Of a DNA stretch of 12,787 bases, positions 1-12,787 are shown piece by piece. The position numbers and the translations under genes were made by a program. The DNA is taken from IMG/VR virus record IMGVR_UViG_2693429748_000014; one strand, written 5' to 3'. The notes below the pieces were generated by a model that saw nothing but the letters and a program-made list of their open reading frames with translations, was not told where the DNA came from and searched no databases. The DNA is from a virus. Lineage: Duplodnaviria > Heunggongvirae > Uroviricota > Caudoviricetes. Each line of letters opens with the position of its first letter. Within the stretch, counting starts at the first letter, position 1.

Positions 1-72
1 TAAGTGATACTGGTTGTCTGGAGATTCAGGGGGCCAGTCTACCACCCCTGATGTCAGGTAGGAAAACACCAT
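1..72 (-). CDS. 5'-partial ORF of unknown function downstream of D; begins MVFSYLTSGVVDWPPESPDNQYHL and runs off the window start
   Basis: ATG at 72-70 on the minus strand, preceded by an AAGGA-containing stretch; open to the window edge. No recognisable similarity to Ogr, which would follow D in P2. Confidence 0.2.
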   Translation of the reverse strand, partial: MVFSYLTSGVVDWPPESPDNQYHL

Positions 73-190
73 ATGTTTCTGCTCTGTTTTTCCTTAGAAA
101 TAGGCATCCTTGCTGGAACAAAGCGAGCAGCTATATTGACTCTATGTTGTGAGTGTGTTGATCCGTTCTGAGTTAATACATTTAAGTTGC

Positions 191-1300
191 TCACTCTGTT
201 TCTGCTATCCATTCCGGGATTTTTGCCTCAAGCTCAAGCTGCGTGGTAAAGCCGCTGTTATCAATGGTGTGCTCGGCTTTTGCAATAATCCAGTCCTGAT
301 TATCAATCTCGCTTTTAAATCCTGTTACCGTGCCATGCATTTCGGGGTAGAGTTCTGCACGTCCATGCGCCAGTGTGATGGAGAATGATGCGGCTCCGCG
401 TTGTAGCTGCTGCCACTTTGCCGCCGCTGCACGTCTTGCTGCCTGCTCGTTCTGATAAGTTTTGCGTAACACAAACACGTTGCCTTCCGCACCTTCCATA
501 TAGTCGCCTTCCCGGCTGCTGCTTTTCTCCTTTTTTGGTTTTGACGGTTTGCGGCGTTTCACGCTGACTTTTTTCTTTTTCCCGTAATTAAGATCAAGCC
601 AGTAAGCGCGTACCCCCGTATACGCTTCGCGGTCAGCAATGCGGAACTGATGGCGATCGCCGCTGCTGCGTGTGATGGCGAACGAGGGCAACGGCTGGCC
701 CTGTGCGTTCACGCCACCACCGGGCATGATGAATAACAGATTACCGCTTTTTACCGTGGTGATTGCGCCCAGCATTTCCGCCATGCGCGTAAGGAAGGAC
801 ATGTCGCTTTCTTCGGTCTGGTCGGCGTGGTCGATTTCGATATCCATCAGCATTTCGCTGATTTGCGGTTTCAGACCATACCGATGAGCGATGGCGGATA
901 CCACACGCTCAACGGTCACATCATGCCAGGACACCTCACGTTTAACGTTAAATTCAGCCCGAAAATCTGCGCTTCTGGCTGAAACAGTCAGCCTGTCCGG
1001 CGGTCCTTCGTGAGCGATTTCATCAACAATGTAAGTGCCTTTTTCTGTCAGCGGTTCTCCCTTCCAGCCAATGAGAACCGTCAGGCGCGCGCCCCGTGGC
1101 GGTAGCTGCAACTGACCATCCGCATCATCCAGCGTGATGGTGAGCTGGTCCGCCTCAAATCCCCGGTTGTCGGTCAGTGACAGGCTCATCAGGCGCTCTG
1201 CCACGCCTGACAGCGTTTTACCCTCCGCGAGAATATCAAAATCCGGCATTTTCACGGGGTCTGTGCCCTGACTGAGCAATTGCATGGTGGTGTCGGTCAT
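191..1300 (-). CDS. P2 gpD-like tail protein (late control gene D family)
   Basis: Translation recalls P2 gpD motifs (LSLTDNRGFEADQL, SARSADFR, SWHD, FLTR, GDRHQF, REGDYMEG, NSGFTT, lysine-rich KKKKVSVKRRKPSKPKKEK linker). Start placed at the internal ATG at 1300 (MTDTTMQLL) because of the GGGAGGGAG Shine-Dalgarno just upstream; the ORF-track start at 1432 is probably too long. Confidence 0.85.
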   Translation of the reverse strand: MTDTTMQLLSQGTDPVKMPDFDILAEGKTLSGVAERLMSLSLTDNRGFEADQLTITLDDADGQLQLPPRGARLTVLIGWKGEPLTEKGTYIVDEIAHEGPPDRLTVSARSADFRAEFNVKREVSWHDVTVERVVSAIAHRYGLKPQISEMLMDIEIDHADQTEESDMSFLTRMAEMLGAITTVKSGNLLFIMPGGGVNAQGQPLPSFAITRSSGDRHQFRIADREAYTGVRAYWLDLNYGKKKKVSVKRRKPSKPKKEKSSSREGDYMEGAEGNVFVLRKTYQNEQAARRAAAAKWQQLQRGAASFSITLAHGRAELYPEMHGTVTGFKSEIDNQDWIIAKAEHTIDNSGFTTQLELEAKIPEWIAETE

Positions 1301-1457
1301 CTGCTCCCTCCCTGTGTGGCATGGTCGCATGTGCGTGCGGAGGGGGTTACTGCTTTTTGTTGTCGCCGTGGCGGGAGAATGGCGCAGGGGTGAGATTACG
1401 CGCGTGGTGGGTGATGATTGTTGCCGAATCATTTAACGGATACAAGGGGTTGAAGCT

Positions 1458-2642
1458 ATGAGTGAAACTCGTTTTCATGGTGCCCGTGTTACGGAAAATA
1501 CCGACCTGGTAACAGCGATTAACGATGTTGATTCCAGCGTTATCGGTATCGTGGCAACGGCGGATGATGCGGACGCGGAGCTGTTCCCGCTGAACAAGCC
1601 CACACTGCTGCCCCGCGTCAATGACGTGCTGGGAAAATGCGGAACAACGGGGACGCTTTATCGTGCGCTTAAGGCCATCGCAGACCAGGTGAGCACAAAG
1701 GTGATCGTCGTTCGCGTGGCTGAACACAAAGAAGAAGACGGAAAAACGCAGGATCAACTGGTTATCGGTGGTTCTGAATCTGACGGCAGCTATACGGGGA
1801 TGTATGCGCTGCTTGTTGCAGAGCAGGATGAAAGCATCGGATACCGTCCGCGTATTCTGGCCGCGCCGGAGCTGGACACGGAGGCGGTGACAAAATCCCT
1901 GTGCGTGATTGCGGGTAAACTGCGCGCGTTTGTGTATGCCTCATGTCATGACTGTAACACGATGGCTGAGGCAATTACCTACCGCCAGAAATTCAACGAA
2001 CGTGAGGTGATGCTCTTATGGCCGGACTTCATCGCCTACAACCCGAAAAGTGGCAAAAACGAAACGTTCCCCGCGCCTGCCTATGCGTGCGGCCTTCGTG
2101 CGTACATTGACCATGAGCAGGGCTGGCACAAATCGCTGTCCAACGTTCCGGTTAAAAATGTGCTGGGGATGTCCAGGCATGTGTTCTGGTCGTTGCAGGC
2201 CGAAGACAGTGATGCCAACAGCCTCAACAACAAAGAAATCACGACCATTATTCGTCGCAACGGGTTCCGCTTCTGGGGCAACCGCACACCGGAAACGAAC
2301 GCCTACATCTTTGAGGTGTATACCCGAACCGCACAGGTGCTGGCTGATTCAATTGCGGAAGCGCAGTTTGAAACCATCGACAGTCCACTGACGCCTGCGA
2401 ACGTGAAGGATGTTATCGGTGCCATCAGGGCAAAACTGGATTCACTGGTTACTGCCGGGAAACTGATTGGGGCGTCGTGCTGGTATGACGTGGTGGATAA
2501 CGGCACCACGAATTTACGTCAGGGGCGCGTGCGTATTCGCTACAAATATACGCCTGTTCCCCCGCTGGAAGACATGGAGCTTTACCAGTCGTTTACTGAT
2601 GAATTCTTTGGTCCCGCATTTGCGGTGCTGGGAGGTGCCTGA
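1458..2642 (+). CDS. contractile tail sheath protein (P2 gpFI family)
   Basis: 394 aa; motifs LRAFVYAS, WPDF, DHEQGWHKSLSNV, RRNGFRFWGNRT, YTRTAQV and YKYTPVPPLE match tail sheath proteins as I recall them; AAGGGG RBS; stop overlaps next start (ATGA). Confidence 0.9.
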   Translation: MSETRFHGARVTENTDLVTAINDVDSSVIGIVATADDADAELFPLNKPTLLPRVNDVLGKCGTTGTLYRALKAIADQVSTKVIVVRVAEHKEEDGKTQDQLVIGGSESDGSYTGMYALLVAEQDESIGYRPRILAAPELDTEAVTKSLCVIAGKLRAFVYASCHDCNTMAEAITYRQKFNEREVMLLWPDFIAYNPKSGKNETFPAPAYACGLRAYIDHEQGWHKSLSNVPVKNVLGMSRHVFWSLQAEDSDANSLNNKEITTIIRRNGFRFWGNRTPETNAYIFEVYTRTAQVLADSIAEAQFETIDSPLTPANVKDVIGAIRAKLDSLVTAGKLIGASCWYDVVDNGTTNLRQGRVRIRYKYTPVPPLEDMELYQSFTDEFFGPAFAVLGGA

Positions 2643-3154
2643 TGGCTGTACCAAAACATCTTCGCTTTTTTACGCTGTTTGTGGATGGTGAAAACGAAGT
2701 GGGTAAGGTGACGTCCGTCACTCTGCCTAAGCTGACGCGCAAAACCGACAGCTACCGGGGTGGTGGCATGATGGGAGCGGTAAGTATTGATCTCGGCCTG
2801 GATGACTCCGCGCTTGATGCGAGCTTTGTCATGGGGGGCGCAGTTCGTGAGCTGTTCCTTAAGTATGGCGGCACGATTGACGGTACGCTGCTGCGTTTTG
2901 CGGGTGAATACTACACCGACGCTGAAAGCGACCTGTATGAAGTCGAAATGCGCGGACGTGTGACGGAAATTGATATGGGGGAAGCCAAACAGGGCGAAGC
3001 CACATCACACACTTACGCCATTAAAAACACCTACTACAAGCTGAGTGTTAACGATCGCCCGTTGTGGGAGATTGACCTGCTGAACTTCATTTACCGGAAG
3101 GACGGCAGGGACATTGTGCCCGATCGCATCCGTTCCGCGCTCGGGCTTGGCTGA
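2642..3154 (+). CDS. tail tube protein (P2 gpFII family)
   Basis: 170 aa immediately after the sheath gene; translationally coupled (ATGA overlap) with GGGAGG RBS; size and position typical of the FI-FII pair. Confidence 0.85.
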   Translation: MAVPKHLRFFTLFVDGENEVGKVTSVTLPKLTRKTDSYRGGGMMGAVSIDLGLDDSALDASFVMGGAVRELFLKYGGTIDGTLLRFAGEYYTDAESDLYEVEMRGRVTEIDMGEAKQGEATSHTYAIKNTYYKLSVNDRPLWEIDLLNFIYRKDGRDIVPDRIRSALGLG

Positions 3155-3208
3155 TAAGTAATATGCAGGCGGCGCAGTGCGTCGCCTCTGACTGAAAGGA
3201 GTTTCCTG

Positions 3209-3574
3209 ATGAAAGAGACGAAAAACATCGATACCGAAAACACGGTCGTTGCTGACACTGTGAAAGAAACCAGTGAGCGTGGCGTAAAACTTACCCAACC
3301 AATTGAGCGAGGCGGCGAAAAAATCACGTATGTGGAGATCACCGGGGCTATTGAGCAGGCTGGATCTCTGCGAGATTTGTCGCTGTCTGATGTGCTGAAT
3401 TTGAAAGCGGAATCCATGTTTACGCTGCTGTCACGCGTGACATCACCGCGACTGGATGAAGTGACGATCAAAAAAATGGCATCCCGTGACTTTATTCAGT
3501 TATGTGTGGTTGCCGTAAATTTTTTGAGCGGTGCGGACTCTGGCGAGAAGAACGAACAGGCGACGGAAGCCTGA
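3209..3574 (+). CDS. tail assembly chaperone (P2 gpE-like), zero-frame product
   Basis: 121-aa ORF between tube and tape measure genes; AGGAG RBS 8 nt upstream; contains the TTTTTTG slippery heptamer at 3520-3526. Confidence 0.75.
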   Translation: MKETKNIDTENTVVADTVKETSERGVKLTQPIERGGEKITYVEITGAIEQAGSLRDLSLSDVLNLKAESMFTLLSRVTSPRLDEVTIKKMASRDFIQLCVVAVNFLSGADSGEKNEQATEA

Positions 3575-3738
3575 TCACGGTTGTGTGCTTTGAGCACATA
3601 GAAGACTTTGTGGCGGATATTGCCGCCATTTTTAACTGGTCGCCCGCCGAAATCTTCATGATGACGCCCGGCGAAGTGGTTAGCTGGCGTGAGCGGGCGG
3701 CACTTCGCAGCGGGAATGCAGACAATGAAGACTCTTGA
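3209..3738 (+). CDS. gpE+E'-like frameshift fusion product (-1 slip at T TTT TTG, 3520-3526)
   Basis: Slippery heptamer lies in-frame as N-F-L. The -1 frame is open from there to the TGA at 3736-3738 (ORF-track protein 3502..3738) and overlaps the tape measure start, as in the P2 E/E' and lambda G/GT arrangement. Confidence 0.6.
3520..3526 (+). promoter_or_regulatory. programmed -1 ribosomal frameshift slippery site TTTTTTG
   Basis: Heptamer seen directly in the sequence with the correct zero-frame phasing (aaT TTT TTG); same heptamer is used in P2 E/E' by recollection. Confidence 0.6.
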
Positions 3739-6532
3739 TATCCGGGTCGCTTTCAGCGCCGTTGACAGGCTGACCCGGCCTGCCGAAAACGCCCGCCGCC
3801 TGATGGGGCAGTTTGGTGACTCCATCCAGCGAACGCAGGGGGCGATCAAAAATCTCGAGCGTCAGGCGCGTTCATTTGAGCGCGCCCGTGACGCTGTCAG
3901 TAAAGCGGATGCGGGCATCGTGAAAGCACGACGCCAGCTTAACGCCCTTAATCAGTTACAACGCACGGGTACAGTGCTCAGCGAAAAACAACAAAAGCTG
4001 ATGCAGCAGTTAAGCACCCGGCTTGAACGCCTGAATGAATCGCGCACACGGGAAATTCAGAAAATGCGGGAACTTGGCGGAGAGCTGAAACGCCACGGCA
4101 TTTCCCTGACAGGCAGCGATAACACCATCCAGCAGGCCATCAGACGCACCGGACAATACAACAACCAGCTTGAACGCGAACGGCGGGCGCTTGCGCGTGT
4201 AACGCAGGCGCGTGAGCGGTATTCACGCGCGCAGGAAACAGCGGGAAAACTGAAAACAGGTGGTGCGCTGGCAACAGGTGCGGCGGCAGCGGGCGGCTAT
4301 GCTGCCGGGCGTTTTTTGCAGCCCGCTATCGGGTTCGGGAAAGAGATGTCCCGTGTTCAGGCACTGACGCGAATCGATAAAAACAGCCCGCAGTTTAAGG
4401 CGCTGCGTGAGCAGGCGTTAAAACTTGGCTCTGAAACGCAGTTCACCGCAGGCGATGCCGCCAGTGGACAGGCATTTCTTGCAATGGCTGGTTTCACACC
4501 GCAGGCCATTCAGGCTGCGCTTCCCGGCGTGCTGAGCATGGCAACGGCTGGCGGTATGGACCTCGGCGAGACGGCGGATATTGGTTCCAATATCCTGACG
4601 CAGTTCGGCCTCTCTGCTGACCAGATGGACCGGGTCGGTGACACACTTACCGCAGCGTTTACCCGTACCAACACTGACCTTCGCGCACTGGGCGAAACCA
4701 TGAAATATGCAGGTCCGGTGGCGGGTAAGCTGGGAATATCGCTGGAGCAGGCCGCAGCGATGGCGGGCGTGCTGGCGAAGATGGGTATCAGGGGGAGTGA
4801 TGCAGGTACAGCGTTGCGTAAAAGCCTGGCCAATCTGTCATCACCGCCAAAGGCAGCGGCAGAAGCACTGAAAGAGCTGGGGGTGTCAGTTGCTGACGCC
4901 AAAGGCAAAATGCGCCCGATGGAGAATGTGCTGGCCGATCTCTATAAAGCCACCCGCAAATACGGGGAGGTTGACCGGGTATCGTTCTTTAAGGACATTG
5001 CCGGAGAAGAGGCTTTCACATCATTTATGGGCCTCGTTGATGCGGCAGGTGACGGCTTCTTAGCCAAACTGAGAAAAGAACTTGAAGGCGCGCGCGGTGA
5101 GGCAGAACGCACGGCAAAGGTTATGGCCAATAACCTTGATGGCAACCTGAAATCACTCGGCAGTGCATGGGAAGGTCTGCGTATTCGCATCAGTGATCTG
5201 GTTGACGGTCCGCTGCGTTCTGTCACGCAGTGGCTCACGCGGGTTGTCTCAAAGGTGACGGCGCTGGCGCAGGCCCACCCGGCACTGACGCGCCAGTTAC
5301 TGATAGCGGGAGGCGCACTGCTGGCGACAACAGCAACGGTTGGTTCGTTGTCTCTGGTTATTGGGGTGCTTCACGGGAAGCTGGCTACGTTGCGTCTCGG
5401 TTTTTCTCTCCTGACCGAATCAATGAATGTTGTCAGGGTTCTGCCTGCATTATGGGGAATGGTGACGGGTTCCGTTTCTTTACTTGGTGGCGCTATCGGG
5501 GCGCTGTTCAGTCCGGTTAGTCTTATCGTGGCTGCGCTTGCCGGAGCTGCCGTTCTTATCTGGAAATACTGGGATCCCATCAGGGCATTTTTTGCCGGGG
5601 TGTTCAGCGGGATTATGGAAAGGCTGACCCCGTTGCGCGAAACCTTTGAACGGTTTGGCCCTGTTTTTGATGTCGTGCGCGATGGGATTATTCAGGTCTT
5701 TAACTGGTTTAAATCGCTGCTGTCACCGATGGAGTCCAGCAAGGAAACGCTGGATAAATGTGCCAGTGCTGGCGAGATATTCGGTAACGTTCTTGGCGGT
5801 GCGTTACAACTTGTTCTGACACCTGCAAAAATGCTACTGGATACGCTGGCGTGGATACTTGAAAAACTTGGCGTCCTTCCGGATGAAGCGGAAAGGGCGC
5901 GCAAGAAAATCGAAGACGCACAGCGTGCGGCCATTCTTCAGGACAAGGTTGCCTTGCTTCAGGGGGACCTGGCGAAAATCAATCCGCCGAAGCCTGTGGA
6001 AAATGGCAATGGCACCGGAGGTGATAAACCCAAAGACAACAAACCGCTCACAGACAGCAATACCGGGACGCTACGCAGACTCAGCAAAATTGCTGATAAC
6101 ACAGGTAAGCTGGTTGATGAGACGAAAAAACGCATTGGCCCCGGCGATATTGTCTTTAAGAACCTGCCCCGCGCACTTGCTGTTCGTGGGGAGTGGCAGG
6201 AGCGGAAGATTGCGCAGGTCAGTAAGCCTGCCCCCGCAATTAATATCACACCCGTGGTCCCGGCTCCGCTGCCTCCGGCGCTGGTCCCTGTTGTTGCGGC
6301 CAGCTCCCGCCCGGTGGCGGAGGCCATACGCTCTCCAGTGGCATCAGTTCCTGTAACTTCCCGTAACCGGGAGCCTGTTGCCTCCGGATTTGGTGGTGAA
6401 ATTCATGTTCATCTGCATAACGTTGTTACGCAGAATCCCCGCGAACTGGCGAAACTGGTCGGTGAAATGGTCAGGGCAGAAATGGAACGGCGCGCCCGTG
6501 CCGGGCGTGGCAGTTTTTACGATAAAGATTGA
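3725..6532 (+). CDS. tail tape measure protein (P2 gpT-like)
   Basis: Very long ORF (GTG 3689 to TGA 6532) after the chaperone pair; coiled-coil-like N-terminal region, central hydrophobic Gly/Ala/Leu-rich block, Pro/Ala-rich C-terminus. Start uncertain: ATG 3725 (GGGA about 9 nt upstream) preferred, with ATG 3716 and GTG 3689 as alternatives. Confidence 0.8.
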   Translation: MKTLDIRVAFSAVDRLTRPAENARRLMGQFGDSIQRTQGAIKNLERQARSFERARDAVSKADAGIVKARRQLNALNQLQRTGTVLSEKQQKLMQQLSTRLERLNESRTREIQKMRELGGELKRHGISLTGSDNTIQQAIRRTGQYNNQLERERRALARVTQARERYSRAQETAGKLKTGGALATGAAAAGGYAAGRFLQPAIGFGKEMSRVQALTRIDKNSPQFKALREQALKLGSETQFTAGDAASGQAFLAMAGFTPQAIQAALPGVLSMATAGGMDLGETADIGSNILTQFGLSADQMDRVGDTLTAAFTRTNTDLRALGETMKYAGPVAGKLGISLEQAAAMAGVLAKMGIRGSDAGTALRKSLANLSSPPKAAAEALKELGVSVADAKGKMRPMENVLADLYKATRKYGEVDRVSFFKDIAGEEAFTSFMGLVDAAGDGFLAKLRKELEGARGEAERTAKVMANNLDGNLKSLGSAWEGLRIRISDLVDGPLRSVTQWLTRVVSKVTALAQAHPALTRQLLIAGGALLATTATVGSLSLVIGVLHGKLATLRLGFSLLTESMNVVRVLPALWGMVTGSVSLLGGAIGALFSPVSLIVAALAGAAVLIWKYWDPIRAFFAGVFSGIMERLTPLRETFERFGPVFDVVRDGIIQVFNWFKSLLSPMESSKETLDKCASAGEIFGNVLGGALQLVLTPAKMLLDTLAWILEKLGVLPDEAERARKKIEDAQRAAILQDKVALLQGDLAKINPPKPVENGNGTGGDKPKDNKPLTDSNTGTLRRLSKIADNTGKLVDETKKRIGPGDIVFKNLPRALAVRGEWQERKIAQVSKPAPAINITPVVPAPLPPALVPVVAASSRPVAEAIRSPVASVPVTSRNREPVASGFGGEIHVHLHNVVTQNPRELAKLVGEMVRAEMERRARAGRGSFYDKD

Positions 6533-6538
6533 GGAGTC

Positions 6539-7033
6539 ATGGCCATGATGATGATCTACGGCATGTTTGTTTTTGAGCTGCGTACATTGCCGCATCAGCA
6601 GTTACAGCAAAACAAAAGCTGGCGGCATGTGAAAAATGAACGCGTTAACCGTTCGGCAAGCTGGCAGTATATCGGTGCAGGTGATGAGCGCATCGTTCTT
6701 TCTGGTGTGCTTTATCCTGAAATTACAGGTGGCGAAGTGTCGCTGTCGCTGCTGACCACGCAGGCGTATACAGGACGACCCTGGCCTCTGATTGATGGCG
6801 TCGGGCAGATTTACGGCATGTATGTCCTGACCGAAACGAATACGACCCGCTCCGAGTTTGATCGCTACGGTAAGGCGAAAAAGATAGAATTTTCACTGAC
6901 TCTTGAACGCTGTGATGAGGATTTGCGGGAGCGCCTGCAATCCTCATCGTTCAGCGATATGCTGTCCGGCTTCAAAGATAAGGTAACATCATCCCTTAAC
7001 AGCGCGGCCAGTTCAGTTAAAGGGTTGTTCTGA
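6539..7033 (+). CDS. tail protein gpU-like (tail sheath-terminating / tail completion protein)
   Basis: 164-aa ORF directly after the tape measure gene with GGAG RBS; size and position match P2 gpU. Confidence 0.8.
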   Translation: MAMMMIYGMFVFELRTLPHQQLQQNKSWRHVKNERVNRSASWQYIGAGDERIVLSGVLYPEITGGEVSLSLLTTQAYTGRPWPLIDGVGQIYGMYVLTETNTTRSEFDRYGKAKKIEFSLTLERCDEDLRERLQSSSFSDMLSGFKDKVTSSLNSAASSVKGLF

Positions 7034-7044
7034 TTTAACACAAA

Positions 7045-7079
7045 AACCGCTAATGGTCAGATTAGCGGTTATTTTGTTT
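7045..7079. terminator. bidirectional intrinsic terminator between convergent U and invertase genes
   Basis: Perfect 10-bp inverted repeat AACCGCTAAT / ATTAGCGGTT with 6-nt loop, A-run upstream and ATTTTGTTT downstream. Confidence 0.6.
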
Positions 7080-7656
7080 CCTGACTCTTCTCTATTGTTC
7101 CGATTGATTCTCCTGCGGGGTGGTAACGATAAATCGTCGATATACCAATGCCGTAAATTATTGCCAGTTGTTTTCTGTCGTGCCCGTTTTTGATCAGCCT
7201 TGCTATTTGCTCATGCTGTTCTTTTGTCAGCTTCGGTCGACGTCCGCCTGTGCGCCCCCGTGCGCGTGCTGCCGCCAGTCCGGCCAGTGTACGTTCAACA
7301 ATTAATTCACGTTCCATTTCAGCCAGGGCACCCATCACGTGGAAGAAAAAACGCCCCATTGGAGAAGATGTATCTATGCTGTCGGTCAGACTGCGAAAAT
7401 TAATTCCTCGCTCCCGTAGTTCCCCGACGAGAGAAATCAGATGTTTCATGCTTCGCCCGAGGCGATCCAGTTTCCAGACAACCAGCGTGTCACCTTTTTG
7501 AAGGCGCTTTAAAGCGCGTTTTAATCCCGGTCGGTCTGTCTTTGTCCCGCTTAATTTATCTTCAAATATTTGTTCACATCCTGCACAAACAAGAGCGTTT
7601 CGTTGCAGGTCTGTATTCTGGTCATTTGTTGATACCCTTACATAGCCAATCAGCAC
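7069..7656 (-). CDS. serine site-specific DNA invertase (Gin/Pin/Cin/Hin family)
   Basis: N-terminus VLIGYVRVSTNDQNTDLQRNAL with catalytic-serine motif, WKLDRLGRS, GRFFFHVMGALAEMERELIVERT and a C-terminal helix-turn-helix, all hallmark invertase sequences. Start set at GTG 7656 (GGGAGA RBS) rather than the TTG at 7674 used by the ORF track. Confidence 0.9.
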   Translation of the reverse strand: MLIGYVRVSTNDQNTDLQRNALVCAGCEQIFEDKLSGTKTDRPGLKRALKRLQKGDTLVVWKLDRLGRSMKHLISLVGELRERGINFRSLTDSIDTSSPMGRFFFHVMGALAEMERELIVERTLAGLAAARARGRTGGRRPKLTKEQHEQIARLIKNGHDRKQLAIIYGIGISTIYRYHPAGESIGTIEKSQETK

Positions 7657-7710
7657 GCTGAATCTCCCGTCCAAAAGCGCAAATCATGCCATGCAGGCCG
7701 GAAACGGCCA

Positions 7711-7736
7711 TTATCTAAAACCTCGGTTTACAGGAA
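7711..7736. promoter_or_regulatory. 26-bp invertase crossover site (gix/cix/hix-like): TTATCTAAAACCTCGGTTTACAGGAA
   Basis: Imperfect palindrome with AAACC-N2-GGTTT core; matches the Mu gix sequence as I recall it at 25 of 26 positions. Lies between the invertase start and the fibre cassette. Confidence 0.7.
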
Positions 7737-7760
7737 ACGGTAAACAAGGCTGGTAACGCC

Positions 7761-8747
7761 GTGCAAAAAAATGGCGATACGTTGTCCGGTGGACTTACTT
7801 TTGAAAACGACTCAATCCTTGCCTGGATTCGAAATACTGACTGGGCAAAGATTGGGTTTAAAAATAATTCGGATGCAGACACCGATTCCTACATGTGGTT
7901 TGAAACAGGCAACAACGGCAATGAATATTTCAAATGGAGACACCGCATCATTGGCACCCGGCCTAAAGACCTGATGAATCTTAAATGGAATGCTTTGTCT
8001 GTTCTTGTTGAAGCCCTTTTCAGCAGTGAAGTGAAAATATCGACAGTCAATGCACTGAGGATATTTAATTCATCTTTTGGTGCCATTTTTCGTCGTTCTG
8101 AAGAATGCCTGCATATCATCCCTACACGAGAGAATGAAGGGGAAAATGGTAATATAGGGCCACTACGCCCCTTTACGCTTAATCTCAGAACTGGCCGGAT
8201 AAGCATGGGGCATGGTCTTGATGTTACAGGGGATATATTTGCAAACCGTTTTGCAATTAACAGTAGTACCGGCATGTGGATTCATATGCGTGACCAGAAT
8301 GTTATTTTGGGACGTAATGCGGTATCCACTGATGGTGCTCAGGCTTTGCTCCGTCAGGACCATGCCGACCGCAAATTTATGATTGGCGGTCTGGGAAATA
8401 AGCAATTTGGCATCTACATGATTAATAACTCAAGGACAGCCAATGGCACCGATGGTCAGGCGTACATGGATAATAACGGGAACTGGCTTTGCGGCTCGCA
8501 AGTTATTCCCGGCAACTATGGCAATTTTGATTCCAGATATGTGAAAGATGTTCGACTTGGTTCACAGCAATATTATGGAGTGAACAACTGGCAAACATGG
8601 AATTTTCAGTGCCCGTCAGGCTATGTACTGACGGGGATTAACGTACAGGATACCGGAAAAAACTCTGCCGATAATATTGCAGGCGTTCATTACAGGCCAG
8701 TGCAAAAGTATATAAATGGCACTTGGTATAATGTGGCGAGTATTTAA
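7761..8747 (+). CDS. tail fibre C-terminal variable cassette (Sv-like); reading frame is actually open from 7719
   Basis: Contains the [10 protein letters not shown] fibre motif and ends [11 protein letters not shown]. The GTG start at 7761 is probably not a real initiation site: the frame is open back into the right half of the crossover site, as expected for a cassette fused to a constant N-terminal part by inversion. Confidence 0.75.
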
Positions 8748-8748
8748 T

Positions 8749-9276
8749 ATGATGCACTTAAAGAACATAAAAGCAGGTAATGCTAAAACAGTGGAGCAGT
8801 ATGAGTTAACAAAGAAGCACGGAGTCATCTGGCTTTACTCTGAGGACGGAAAAAACTGGTATGAGGAAGTGAAGAACTTTCAGCCAGACACAATAAAGAT
8901 TGTTTACGATGCAAATAATATTATTGTCGCCATCACCAAAGATGCCTCCACGCTTAACCCTGAAGGTTATAGCGTCGTTGAGGTTCCTGATATTACAGCT
9001 AATCGTCGTGCTGATGATTCCGGTAAGTGGATGTTTAAGGACGGAGCTGTGGTTAAACGGATTTATACGGCTGACGAACAGCAACAACAGGCCGAATCAC
9101 AAAAGGCCGCATTGCTTTCCGAAGCTGAATCAGTCATCCAGCCGCTGGAACGCGCTGTCAGGCTGAATATGGCGACGGACGAGGAACGCACACGACTGGA
9201 AGCATGGGAACGCTACAGTGTTCTGGTCAGCCGTGTGGATACGGCAAAGCCAGAATGGCCACAAAAGCCTGAGTAA
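8749..9276 (+). CDS. tail fibre assembly chaperone (Tfa / Mu U / P2 G family)
   Basis: Starts [10 protein letters not shown] one nucleotide after the cassette stop; paralogous to the convergent ORF 9305..9838; conserved [19 protein letters not shown] and KWMFKDG motifs. The longer ORF-track start at 8716 overlaps the fibre gene and is less likely. Confidence 0.8.
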
Positions 9277-9281
9277 AAATT

Positions 9282-9301
9282 AAGGCCCGATATCGGGCCT
9301 T
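9282..9301. terminator. palindromic hairpin / bidirectional terminator between convergent tfa genes
   Basis: AAGGCCCGATATCGGGCCTT is a perfect 20-bp palindrome with A/T-rich flanks on both sides. Confidence 0.5.
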
Positions 9302-9304
9302 GTT

Positions 9305-9838
9305 TCATTCTGGTTGTTCGGGAAACGTTACTGGCAGGCTGGAGGTGTCTGTGGATTCGACCTTCTGCGCATAGAGCATCCACTCGGTTAATTTTTGTTT
9401 ATTCTCGTCGGAAATAATGCCCAGCCGTAGCTGTGAGTCCCATAGCTGGGTTTTATCCCTGACGAGCTGTAGCAGGCTTTGCTTTTCATTTTCCGCTTGT
9501 TGCCTCTGCTCTTCCCCGGTATAAGTTCGCTTTATCACTACGCCATCTTTGAACATCCATTTACCTGAAATATCAGCCCGGCGATTTGCTGTAATATCAG
9601 GAACCTCAACGACGCTTGCGCCTTCCGGATTAATTGCTGAAACATCCTTTTCAATACAAATAATAACGCCGTTGTGGTCATAGACCATTTTCAACGTATC
9701 AGGCTGAAAGTTCTTTTGTTCCTCATACCAGTTTTTCCCATCCTCTGTATAAAGCCATTTGATGTTAAATTGTTTCGTTAGCTGGTATTGCTCTTTTGTT
9801 TCAGGATTACCAGCAGAAATGTTTTTTAAGTGCATCAT
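9305..9838 (-). CDS. tail fibre assembly chaperone, second paralogue (Tfa')
   Basis: Starts MMHLKNISAG; N-terminal two-thirds closely similar to the plus-strand chaperone while the C-terminus diverges, as expected for cognate chaperones of alternative fibres. Confidence 0.8.
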   Translation of the reverse strand: MMHLKNISAGNPETKEQYQLTKQFNIKWLYTEDGKNWYEEQKNFQPDTLKMVYDHNGVIICIEKDVSAINPEGASVVEVPDITANRRADISGKWMFKDGVVIKRTYTGEEQRQQAENEKQSLLQLVRDKTQLWDSQLRLGIISDENKQKLTEWMLYAQKVESTDTSSLPVTFPEQPE

Positions 9839-9840
9839 CG

Positions 9841-10197
9841 TTAAATACTCCCCGCGTTATACCACGTCCCATTAATGCAATACTGAATTGGCCTTGCCTG
9901 AGTTGTATCAATTAGTTCATCTCTGTTTGAGTTAACGGAACCGGTAACAACATAACCTGACCTGTCAGACCATCCGGGACCATTCCATGTCTGAACAGAT
10001 AACAGACCACCAAGGCGAATACCTGTAATAAACCTTGAGTTACATTCTGCCTGCGTATATGCACCAACATCTCCCGCAGAGGGTTTGCGGGTTGTGGTGT
10101 AAAACTCTGAGGTGTACTGGCAATAGCGGACACTACCATTTGTTCTTTTTTTAAGCAGCCATCTGATGATATTTTTCCCTGAAGGCTGAAGGCTATT
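9841..10197 (-). pseudogene. truncated alternative tail-fibre C-terminal cassette (Sv' remnant), about 118 codons with no start codon
   Basis: Hand translation of the minus strand gives ...RLGGLLSVQTWNGPGWSDRSGYVVTGSVNSNRDELIDTTQARPIQYCINGTWYNAGSI*, homologous to the C-terminus of the plus cassette (SGYVLTG ... [11 protein letters not shown]). Stop TAA at 9843-9841, 2 nt before the Tfa' start. Frame closed upstream by TGA at 10200-10198, where GC content drops. Confidence 0.55.
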
Positions 10198-10250
10198 TCA
10201 ATATCGCTATGCTGCGGCAGCATTTAACCCCTTGTAATTCATCGCCATAA

Positions 10251-10279
10251 TTGATTTAATTCACAAATAAAACTATAAT
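10251..10279 (+). promoter_or_regulatory. predicted sigma70 promoter TTGATT-N17-TATAAT for the methyltransferase gene
   Basis: Hexamers at 10251-10256 and 10274-10279 with 17-bp spacer in an AT-rich region just upstream of the ORF. The predicted transcription start would leave a very short leader. Confidence 0.35.
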
Positions 10280-10291
10280 ATGGTGAAATTA

Positions 10292-10948
10292 ATGAAAAAA
10301 AACACAGATGATGGGGCTAAAATTTACACACCACTTACCCTAAAGCTTTATGACTGGTGGGTTTTGGGAGTATCAAATCGGCTTGCATGGGGATGTCCTA
10401 CAAAGGAACACCTTCTTCCACACTTTCTGGAACATTTAGGTAACAACCATCTGGATATTGGTGTTGGAACTGGGTTTTACCTTACTCACGTACCTGAGAG
10501 TAGTCTGATATCTTTAATGGATTTGAACGAAGCTAGCCTGAACGCGGCATCTACAAGGGCTGGGGAATCAAAAATTAAACATAAAATTAGCCATGATGTT
10601 TTTGAACCTTATCCCGCGGCGTTACATGGTCAATTTGATTCCATTTCCATGTTTTACCTTCTTCACTGCCTGCCTGGAAATATATCTACAAAAAGCTGTG
10701 TAATACGCAATGCGGCGCAGGCCTTAACTGATGATGGAACTCTATACGGAGCCACAATTCTTGGCGATGGAGTTGTGCACAATAGCTTCGGTCAAAAACT
10801 GATGCGCATTTACAATCAGAAAGGCATCTTTTCAAACACAAAAGATTCCGAAGAAGGCTTAACACATATACTCTCAGAGCATTTCGAGAATGTTAAAACC
10901 AGGGTTCAAGGTACTGTAGTAATGTTTTCCGCTTCAGGGAAAAAATAG
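10292..10948 (+). CDS. class I SAM-dependent methyltransferase (cargo / moron gene)
   Basis: Motif I-like LDIGVGTGFY, acidic residue after the second strand (LMDLNEASL) and later FDSISMFYLLHCLPG / LTDDGTLYGATILGDG motifs, consistent with the Rossmann methyltransferase fold. Clearly lower GC than the flanks. Start at ATG 10292 (GGTGA RBS) preferred; ATG 10280 possible. Confidence 0.65.
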   Translation: MKKNTDDGAKIYTPLTLKLYDWWVLGVSNRLAWGCPTKEHLLPHFLEHLGNNHLDIGVGTGFYLTHVPESSLISLMDLNEASLNAASTRAGESKIKHKISHDVFEPYPAALHGQFDSISMFYLLHCLPGNISTKSCVIRNAAQALTDDGTLYGATILGDGVVHNSFGQKLMRIYNQKGIFSNTKDSEEGLTHILSEHFENVKTRVQGTVVMFSASGKK

Positions 10949-10955
10949 CATCCAA

Positions 10956-10988
10956 CCGCAGCACGTTCTTGCTTAAGACGTGCTGCGG
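10956..10988. other. stem-loop after the methyltransferase gene (CCGCAGCACGT ... ACGTGCTGCGG)
   Basis: 11-bp perfect inverted repeat 8 nt after the stop codon; no T-run follows on the plus strand, so terminator function is uncertain. Confidence 0.3.
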
Positions 10989-11146
10989 CATAATCCCAAT
11001 GATTACTCCCTGACAGGGTTCGTAGGCCACTCAATATCAGGTGCAGTTGATGTATCAACACGGTTCAGCAACACCCGATACTTTTTCTAGGCTTCCACCA
11101 CCAGCACGACAAGATGCCGCATACAGTGACCCAGTCAGTCCAGTTT

Positions 11147-11329
11147 TCAGACAACCAGTGCGTCACCTTTTTGAAGGCGCTTTAAAGCACGTTTTAATCC
11201 AGGTCGGCCTGTCCTTGTTCCGCTTAATTTATCTTCAAATATTTGTTCATATCCTGCACAAACAAGAGCGTTTCGTTGCAGGTCTGTATTCTGGTCATTT
11301 GTTGATACCCTTACATAGCCAATCAGCAC
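11147..11329 (-). pseudogene. 5' fragment of a second Gin/Pin-family invertase gene (about 60 N-terminal codons), truncated
   Basis: Encodes VLIGYVRVSTNDQNTDLQRNALVCAGYEQIFEDKLSGTRTGRPGLKRALKRLQKGDALVV then a stop; 4 amino-acid differences from the intact copy. Homology to the intact gene ends near 11139. Confidence 0.7.
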
Positions 11330-11383
11330 GCTGAATCTCCCGTCCAAAAGCGCAAATCATGCCATGCAGGCCGGAAACGGCCA

Positions 11384-11409
11384 TTATCTAAAACCTCGGT
11401 TTACAGGAA
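11384..11409. promoter_or_regulatory. second copy of the 26-bp gix-like crossover site, in direct orientation to the first
   Basis: Identical sequence TTATCTAAAACCTCGGTTTACAGGAA, 3673 bp downstream of the first copy. Confidence 0.65.
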
Positions 11410-11433
11410 ACGGTAAACAAGGCTGGTAACGCC

Positions 11434-12420
11434 GTGCAAAAAAATGGCGATACGTTGTCCGGTGGACTTACTTTTGAAAACGACTCAATCCTTGCCTGGA
11501 TTCGAAATACTGACTGGGCAAAGATTGGGTTTAAAAATAATTCGGATGCAGACACCGATTCCTACATGTGGTTTGAAACAGGCAACAACGGCAATGAATA
11601 TTTCAAATGGAGACACCGCATCATTGGCACCCGGCCTAAAGACCTGATGAATCTTAAATGGAATGCTTTGTCTGTTCTTGTTGAAGCCCTTTTCAGCAGT
11701 GAAGTGAAAATATCGACAGTCAATGCACTGAGGATATTTAATTCATCTTTTGGTGCCATTTTTCGTCGTTCTGAAGAATGCCTGCATATCATCCCTACAC
11801 GAGAGAATGAAGGGGAAAATGGTAATATAGGGCCACTACGCCCCTTTACGCTTAATCTCAGAACTGGCCGGATAAGCATGGGGCATGGTCTTGATGTTAC
11901 AGGGGATATATTTGCAAACCGTTTTGCAATTAACAGTAGTACCGGCATGTGGATTCATATGCGTGACCAGAATGTTATTTTGGGACGTAATGCGGTATCC
12001 ACTGATGGTGCTCAGGCTTTGCTCCGTCAGGACCATGCCGACCGCAAATTTATGATTGGCGGTCTGGGAAATAAGCAATTTGGCATCTACATGATTAATA
12101 ACTCAAGGACAGCCAATGGCACCGATGGTCAGGCGTACATGGATAATAACGGGAACTGGCTTTGCGGCTCGCAAGTTATTCCCGGCAACTATGGCAATTT
12201 TGATTCCAGATATGTGAAAGATGTTCGACTTGGTTCACAGCAATATTATGGAGTGAACAACTGGCAAACATGGAATTTTCAGTGCCCGTCAGGCTATGTA
12301 CTGACGGGGATTAACGTACAGGATACCGGAAAAAACTCTGCCGATAATATTGCAGGCGTTCATTACAGGCCAGTGCAAAAGTATATAAATGGCACTTGGT
12401 ATAATGTGGCGAGTATTTAA
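11434..12420 (+). CDS. tail fibre C-terminal variable cassette, second copy (identical to 7761..8747)
   Basis: ORF-track translation is identical to the first copy. Confidence 0.7.
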
Positions 12421-12421
12421 T

Positions 12422-12787
12422 ATGATGCACTTAAAGAACATAAAAGCAGGTAATGCTAAAACAGTGGAGCAGTATGAGTTAACAAAGAAGCACGGAGTCA
12501 TCTGGCTTTACTCTGAGGACGGAAAAAACTGGTATGAGGAAGTGAAGAACTTTCAGCCAGACACAATAAAGATTGTTTACGATGCAAATAATATTATTGT
12601 CGCCATCACCAAAGATGCCTCCACGCTTAACCCTGAAGGTTATAGCGTCGTTGAGGTTCCTGATATTACAGCTAATCGTCGTGCTGATGATTCCGGTAAG
12701 TGGATGTTTAAGGACGGAGCTGTGGTTAAACGGATTTATACGGCTGACGAACAGCAACAACAGGCCGAATCACAAAAGGCCGCATTG
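12422..12787 (+). CDS. tail fibre assembly chaperone, second copy, 3'-truncated by the window end
   Basis: Same [10 protein letters not shown] start and sequence as 8749..9276 at offset +3673; runs off the window. Confidence 0.7.

Follow-up and report, generated by a model that had tools for sequence, protein, structure and literature searches.

A start-less tail-fibre remnant at an IS600 end in the Mu G-type invertible module of a P2-like prophage

Known fibre-switching modules and the layout of the window

The G segment of phage Mu carries the gene pairs S/U and U'/S' next to gin (PMC4406740). The stretch of DNA analysed here (12,787 nucleotides; hereafter, the window) resembles the G segment, including that of Shigella phage SfMu, in three respects: a serine invertase lies beside two convergent pairs of a fibre C-terminus and an assembly protein, the crossover site TTATCTAAAACCTCGGTTTACAGGAA is close to the gix consensus, and the 89 aa of a fibre remnant match the C-terminal 90 residues of the Mu S/S' fibre (PDB 8ju3). 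SfMu itself covers 77% of window positions 7000-12787 at 95.5% DNA identity. Unlike the Mu segment, however, the module resides in a P2-like prophage and not in Mu, and its Sv' copy, cut to 28% by IS600 and with neither a gix site nor a constant part, cannot participate in the switch.

Cryptic Escherichia coli prophages with Pin-type invertases (the e14 P region, Rac, and Qin) hold start-less or truncated C-terminal fragments of side-tail-fibre genes next to tfa and invertase genes. Pseudogenes of this type find a likeness in the H10407 locus by potB, which mixes partial tfa genes with a truncated recombinase; they belong, however, to lambdoid side-tail-fibre modules, whereas in the window a specific IS600 end lies inside a P2-type fibre gene. 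A further counterpart is the intact allele of CP026802.1 (designated L012), of the type found in Xuanwuvirus-type Peduoviridae such as Escherichia phage 520873, which has the same order of D, FI to U, invertase, Sv, tfa, tfa', and fibre.

With respect to the features that characterize the Mu G, P1 C, and e14 P cassettes, the remnant shows homology to S'/Sv', a cognate tfa' on the same strand, a convergent Sv–tfa pair, and an invertase of the Gin/Hin/Pin/Cin group; absent are a 5' inverted gix/cix/pix site and a complete variable region that could be joined to the constant part (Sc). By descent, the remnant is a Mu S'/P1 Sv'-type cassette, one that fails two defining features of its class, namely, the flanking crossover site and the complete variable region. 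Nor does the locus conform to the multi-cassette inversion systems (the Min system of p15B and the shufflons), whose start-less cassettes are bordered by multiple crossover sites of both orientations: the window contains two sites in a single orientation, neither of them at the remnant.

As a whole, the window comprises tail genes of a P2-like prophage (Peduoviridae, Xuanwuvirus-type) together with a Mu G-segment-type invertible fibre module (Table 1), and its annotated relatives, which share this gene order, are assigned to the genus Xuanwuvirus of the Peduoviridae. In P2, the genes FI–FII–E–T–U–D are arranged on one strand. Here, the FI-to-U block is on the strand opposite to gpD and to the fibre and baseplate genes of the relatives, with the invertase gene at the end of the block. 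This opposite-strand arrangement is kept in all relatives examined (L004-L013 and L024) and in the Xuanwuvirus phage 520873 and, being conserved throughout, is a family trait as opposed to a local rearrangement. In CP026802.1, which is otherwise identical, position 1 of the window corresponds to the border of an IS3-family element (L012 19838-19889), which hints that the window may be a whole draft contig ending at an insertion sequence.

Table 1. Features of the window, with positions, strands, and the evidence for each
Feature	Position	Strand	Evidence or remark
gpD	191-1300	-	Pfam and annotation of relatives
Sheath FI	1458-2642	+ (opposite to gpD)	
Tube FII	2642-3154	+ (opposite to gpD)	
E	3209-3574	+ (opposite to gpD)	
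Tape measure	to 6532	+ (opposite to gpD)	
gpU	to 7033	+ (opposite to gpD)	
Serine DNA invertase (Gin/Pin/Cin type), 195 aa	7069..7656	-	Pfam Resolvase 1.5e-50, HTH_7 1.8e-13
gix-like site TTATCTAAAACCTCGGTTTACAGGAA, invertase-side copy	7711..7736	+	Paired in relatives with an inverted copy inside the fibre gene
Sv cassette, Mu S-type variable fibre C-terminus	7761..8747	+	328 aa from an in-frame GTG; PHROG 454 tail fibre 3.1e-94
tfa, U-type tail fibre assembly protein, 175 aa	8749..9276	+	Caudo_TAP 3e-37; coordinates mapped from L012 gene calls
GC-rich hairpin between convergent tfa genes	9281..9302	.	Looks like a bidirectional terminator
tfa', U'-type tail fibre assembly protein, 177 aa, intact	9305..9838	-	Caudo_TAP 7.1e-37
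Truncated Sv' remnant	9841..10110	-	Last 89 codons and TAA of a Mu S'-type fibre; 10108-10110 common with the IS600 end
Chimeric 103-aa ORF	9912..10223	-	tfa-like start, IS600 end, then fibre DNA out of frame
IS600 (IS3 family), terminal 81 bp	10108..10188	.	Terminal repeat TGAGGTGTACTGGC... and last 11-12 codons of orfB (AFREKYHQMAA, then stop)
tfa-like gene, first 11 codons (MLPQHSDIEIA)	10190..10223	-	Divergent from the methyltransferase gene in other genomes; alignment and translation of L014 7675-7944
Class I SAM-dependent methyltransferase, 222 aa, cargo gene	10280..10948	+	Pfam Methyltransf_12/23/25/11; so annotated in H10407
tfa gene fragment	about 11003..11107	-	Equivalent H10407 position annotated as partial tail fibre assembly protein; BLAST repeat
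Truncated invertase, N-terminal 66 codons only	11147..11347	-	Resolvase 4.1e-15, profile positions 2-69 of 145
Second gix-like site	11384..11409	+	Identical to the first, same orientation
Second Sv copy (11434-12420) and start of tfa	11434..12787	+	Identical to 7761-9114; cut by the window end

The module is ordered invertase, gix, Sv–tfa on the plus strand, and tfa'–Sv' on the minus strand. The length given for the invertase follows the gene calls in L012 and L004, which are 100% identical to the window here (the mechanical ORF extends further, as far as the TTG at 7674). An 18-nt inverted repeat (7037-7078, 89% complementary, with a 6-nt spacer) occupies the interval between the ends of gpU and of the invertase gene; it is probably a terminator shared by both directions of transcription. 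The Sv cassette, annotated with a Gp34_trimer domain in relatives, occupies the unexpressed position adjoining the invertase. The exact tfa' protein is indexed in 617 blocks of the protein collection, and in nine of the ten places shown it accompanies a long fibre gene, either directly downstream of it (L004, L006, L008, L011, and L012) or with the long fibre gene across the inverted segment and a short start-less cassette ORF upstream of tfa' (L005, L009, L010, and L013); in L007, only a 436-aa unannotated ORF is found upstream. Relatives of the same prophage carry the segment in both orientations with swapped outer half-sites, which indicates that the intact system inverts. In the window, the two gix-like sites of Table 1 are the only ones, and both are invertase-side copies in the same orientation; neither a gix site adjoining the remnant nor an inverted partner occurs within it. 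We also considered and rejected a gix-like match inside the remnant (10030-10041, two mismatches), which is at chance level (9 matches, versus 6.9 expected).

Identity and extent of the fibre remnant

The fibre-like coding signal lies in a minus-strand frame of 118 open codons (10197..9844) that ends with a TAA at 9843-9841 and whose product terminates in INGTWYNAGSI; the translation of 10260..9841 on this strand yields NSLQPSGKNIIRWLLKKRTNGSVRYCQYTSEFYTTTRKPSAGDVGAYTQAECNSRFITGIRLGGLLSVQTWNGPGWSDRSGYVVTGSVNSNRDELIDTTQARPIQYCINGTWYNAGSI between two stops, the upstream one at 10200-10198. The mechanical ORF list (minimum length, 20 aa) includes no ORF of at least 20 aa beginning with ATG, GTG, or TTG in this frame, and its sole long entry at the locus is the 103-aa ORF, in a different frame. 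An earlier note on this DNA had described just such a start-less frame with this ending, and translation and ORF list agree with it. The parallel that it drew with the C-terminus of the plus-strand cassette is likewise evident, both in DNA (a 54-nt inverted repeat, 8694-8747/9841-9894, that is 76% complementary) and in protein (40% identity between the remnant and the Sv C-terminus over the last 75 aa; BLASTP, E = 1e-10).

The earlier note had staked its interpretation on similarity to tail-fibre C-terminal domains, and such similarity is detected by BLASTP and by searches against PDB and PHROG sequences. Two intact fibres end in 89 residues nearly identical to those of the remnant: a 700-aa P2-type fibre from E. 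coli B2 (98% identity, E = 2e-60) and a 1033-aa side tail fibre from enterotoxigenic E. coli (ETEC) H10407 (97%, E = 7e-62). In the PDB, the remnant matches the C-terminus (residues 399-488) of 8ju3, "Tail fiber protein S, Tail fiber protein S'" (E = 3.6e-54), and aligns weakly (E = 6e-4) with the C-terminal tip of the Mu S fibre structure 5yvq. PHROG tail-fibre families 454, 5454, and 381 match the frame with E values down to 1.3e-29. Pfam returned no match to the 118-aa frame at E up to 1, such that naming it needed the PHROG and PDB sequence searches. This homology excludes a chance open frame and, together with the adjoining tfa' and an arrangement that mirrors Sv/tfa, it upholds the proposal that the sequence is the C-terminal remnant of a start-less Sv'-type cassette.

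Fibre sequence accounts only for residues 30-118 of the frame (9844-10110), the first 29 codons not being fibre. The earlier note's choice of coding frame is therefore correct, and useful for annotation, but the remnant that it extended to 10197 is real only over 89 codons: fibre homology ends at 10107-10110, and the breakpoint at 10197 is not correct.

What has been lost is apparent from the intact allele. Positions 1-10110 of the window are 100.000% identical at the nucleotide level to L012 and to L004, and the identity ends at 10110. In both of these genomes the corresponding gene encodes an intact 656-aa fibre, in which a gix site separates 342 aa of constant sequence from the 314 aa of the Sv' variable part (the internal gix site of L012 lies 314 codons before the stop, which sets the intact Sv' cassette at 314 aa). 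A measurement of the missing part against an intact Sv', as the earlier note had advised, puts the loss at 225 of 314 residues and leaves 89 (28%); gone as well are the gix site and the entire constant part. Whereas the intact allele continues through its internal gix site to the end of the fibre gene and then into baseplate genes, position 10110 of the window is followed by the IS600 end, the methyltransferase gene, and a second gix–Sv–tfa copy, and within the window there is neither further in-frame fibre coding upstream of 10110 nor any constant part beyond it. The remnant shows zero substitutions relative to the intact allele, which indicates that the truncation is recent; with no mutations accumulated, sequence decay offers no independent sign of a dead fragment.

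We consider the remnant, with a probability of about 0.9, to be a non-functional pseudogene fragment of the alternative invertible fibre tip of a P2-like prophage, cut by IS600. At 28% of the variable part, it is too short for folding onto a shaft and, since the gix site, the constant part, and most of the variable region are lost, inversion can fuse it to nothing. It is highly improbable that the sequence is, instead, an intact but silent alternative cassette that is start-less by design and just happens to be bounded by an island. The sequence does have the place and orientation that Sv' takes in modules of the Mu/P1/P2 type, with an intact tfa' directly downstream, the invertase gene is complete, and a start-less Sv' is the norm in such systems (PMC4406740); yet a cassette of 314 codons is down to 89 and has no gix site for fusion, its homology stops at an IS600 terminus and not at a cassette boundary, and beyond the break an opposite-strand methyltransferase gene stands where a constant part should be. 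The earlier note regarded the missing start codon as expected for a fusion cassette, and the absence is indeed inherited from the cassette design, but the fusion role has disappeared along with the gix site and 225 residues.

Given that the fragment of the pseudogene has no start codon and that a simple (and crude) consensus scan of 9200-10400 finds no promoter-like site on the minus strand, we infer that it is silent. The intact tfa', which normally depends on read-through from the fibre gene, is probably silent as well.

The 103-aa ORF is a chimera of three pieces. Its ATG and first codons come from a genuine tfa-like gene, but after 11 codons it crosses the IS600 terminus and then enters fibre DNA in the wrong frame. 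It has no Pfam (E up to 1) or PHROG match, and the exact protein is absent from a collection of about 15 billion proteins, whereas the other frame is 97-98% identical to known fibres. The chance that this ORF is a real gene, and the fibre-like frame incidental, is negligible, and the earlier note was right not to take it for the coding signal.

The IS600 scar and its two junctions

At the break, the fibre gives way to one end of IS600, with positions 10108-10110 (TCA on the minus strand) common to both. The 81 bp at 10108-10188 have a 100% match in each of the two IS600 copies of L016 (CXBM01000039.1); identity to other copies is 95.8-98.8%, the lower value being that for an annotated IS600 site in E. 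coli KSC9. L016 is an independent assembly in which the same fibre/IS600 junction occurs (window positions 9800-10188 at 100%), there followed by a complete IS600 with a 385-aa transposase. From this identical junction it follows that the insertion of IS600 into Sv' at this codon is real and that it predates the loss of the rest of the element. The scar resembles other IS600 insertions and IS-associated deletions in that its 81 bp are identical to full copies, one of which occupies the same point in L016; it differs in consisting of one end and the last 11-12 orfB codons only, and, with neither the orfA/orfB transposase nor the second of the two terminal inverted repeats in the window, it is inert.

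The position of the IS600 end overturns one part of the earlier description, in which the frame was cut off by a stop at the boundary with an AT-rich island. The break is the IS600 end at 10108, and the stop at 10198-10200 is incidental. The island, moreover, is not markedly AT-rich, with a GC content of 39-42%, versus 39-47% in the neighbouring fibre genes; the composition profile displays no sharp change, and an AT-rich island was rejected as the cause of truncation.

On its other side, the scar abuts foreign DNA: the junction reads CTGAAGGCTG followed by AAGGCTATTTC, with GAAGGCT present twice, and the sequence from 10190 onward is a 98-99.9% match to a methyltransferase island in H10407 and L014-L023, a block that elsewhere adjoins lambdoid side-tail-fibre modules and genes with NEL domains (IpaH-like). 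That this island might be bounded on its left by a gix site, as prompted by an Sc-gix near the island in L016, was rejected, because the fibre homology of L016 runs 45 bp past gix and the boundary in the window is an interior point of IS600.

The homology boundaries, the IS600 end, the loss of gix, and the sizes of the parts are direct observations, and they delimit a history whose order of events we infer. The ancestor is a start-less Sv', whose expression requires fusion to the constant part, and its remnant is now severed by an IS600 end, lacks the gix site, and has unrelated DNA beyond. In a first step, IS600 would have entered Sv' at a point 89 codons short of the stop. Thereafter, an illegitimate deletion or recombination event may have removed all but 81 bp of IS600 along with the rest of Sv', gix, and the constant part, and would have joined the scar to codon 11 of the tfa-like gene beside the methyltransferase gene, in a second fibre module of lambdoid type.

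Searches of complete E. coli genomes, one-genome-per-species contigs, viral contigs, and fetched loci retrieved no second example of the IS600/island junction (10188/10190), and exact-pattern scans of one-genome-per-species contigs for this junction and for the fibre/IS600 junction gave no match. The arrangement of the window is also not among the relatives found by look-ups of the exact tfa', methyltransferase, and Sv328 proteins, the same look-ups that supplied the intact allele (L012/L004) and the full-IS600 allele (L016). Uniqueness of this kind would be compatible with an assembly artefact at repeats, whereby the segment from 10108 to 10190, or the whole arrangement with its repeated module, is false and the real genome has an intact fibre or a full IS600. 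Such an artefact could also be suspected from the 1.65-kb repeat, perfect over 1537 bp, that runs off the end of the window, from the coincidence of position 1 with an IS edge in L012, as expected of the end of a draft contig, and from the scrambled appearance of the related draft assemblies L016-L020. We nevertheless judge it very unlikely: the exact recurrence of the fibre/IS600 junction in L016 makes the truncation of Sv' real at least in that lineage, an IS fragment of 81 bp is shorter than a typical read and would assemble correctly, and the two sides of the 10188/10190 junction share only the 7-nt repeat GAAGGCT, which is too short for a graph misjoin.

Taken as an IS600-cut pseudogene fragment, the remnant matters little in itself: the fibre cassette and IS600 are both well known, and the case is one of ordinary IS-driven prophage decay. 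It does, though, illustrate cleanly the erosion of a prophage host-range switch by IS elements, and it shows why start-less cassettes and their fragments escape ORF-based annotation. For annotation, we advise the labels "fibre pseudogene fragment" for 9841-10110 and "IS600 scar" for 10108-10188, with no gene call for the 103-aa ORF.

The methyltransferase island and the second module copy

The exact methyltransferase protein recurs near tail-fibre and tfa fragments, truncated invertases, and NEL-domain (IpaH-like) genes in L014-L023. To its right, the window contains a second copy of part of the fibre module, which together with the first forms a direct repeat of 1.65 kb (7466-9114/11139-12787, spaced 3673 bp apart) that spans the 5' end of the invertase gene, gix, Sv, and tfa and continues to the window end. 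The two copies differ at 9 sites in the first 112 bp and at none in the following 1537 bp (7578-9114 versus 11251-12787). Copy 2 begins on its left as island-type sequence but, from about 11435 rightward, is P2-prophage-type sequence, unlike the Sv280 and Sv203 types that follow the island elsewhere; the switch occurs somewhere within 11250-11435, and the gix site at 11384-11409 lies in that interval. Such a pattern points to a recent exchange or gene conversion, either homologous or invertase-mediated, involving the fibre modules of two prophages. With a gix–Sv–tfa duplication joined to the cargo island of another prophage type, the locus illustrates that homologous fibre modules are hot spots for recombination.

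It is conceivable, though unlikely, that the remnant, the methyltransferase gene, the truncated invertase, and the second gix–Sv–tfa copy all lie between the gix sites of a single enlarged, multi-site invertible region. Were this so, and were a third gix site, in inverted orientation, to follow closely after 12787, the intact invertase could act on segments of two lengths, one short and one long. Phase variation would in that case extend to the orientation of the methyltransferase gene, and the repeat would record an invertase-mediated exchange between the fibre modules of two prophages as opposed to plain homologous recombination.

Several draft assemblies (L016-L020, including CXBM01000039.1, FUDD01000084.1, FUDI01000087.1, and others) contain multiple copies of the methyltransferase island and of Sv/tfa, in both orientations and on single contigs, which reflects either real scrambling of fibre modules or misassembly at repeats.

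In Gin/Hin-type systems, the N-terminal region of the invertase gene holds the recombinational enhancer. The truncated invertase gene of the window, of which only the N-terminal codons are left, may retain this enhancer and adjoins an intact gix site, so that the intact invertase (gene at 7069-7656) might still act on copy 2.
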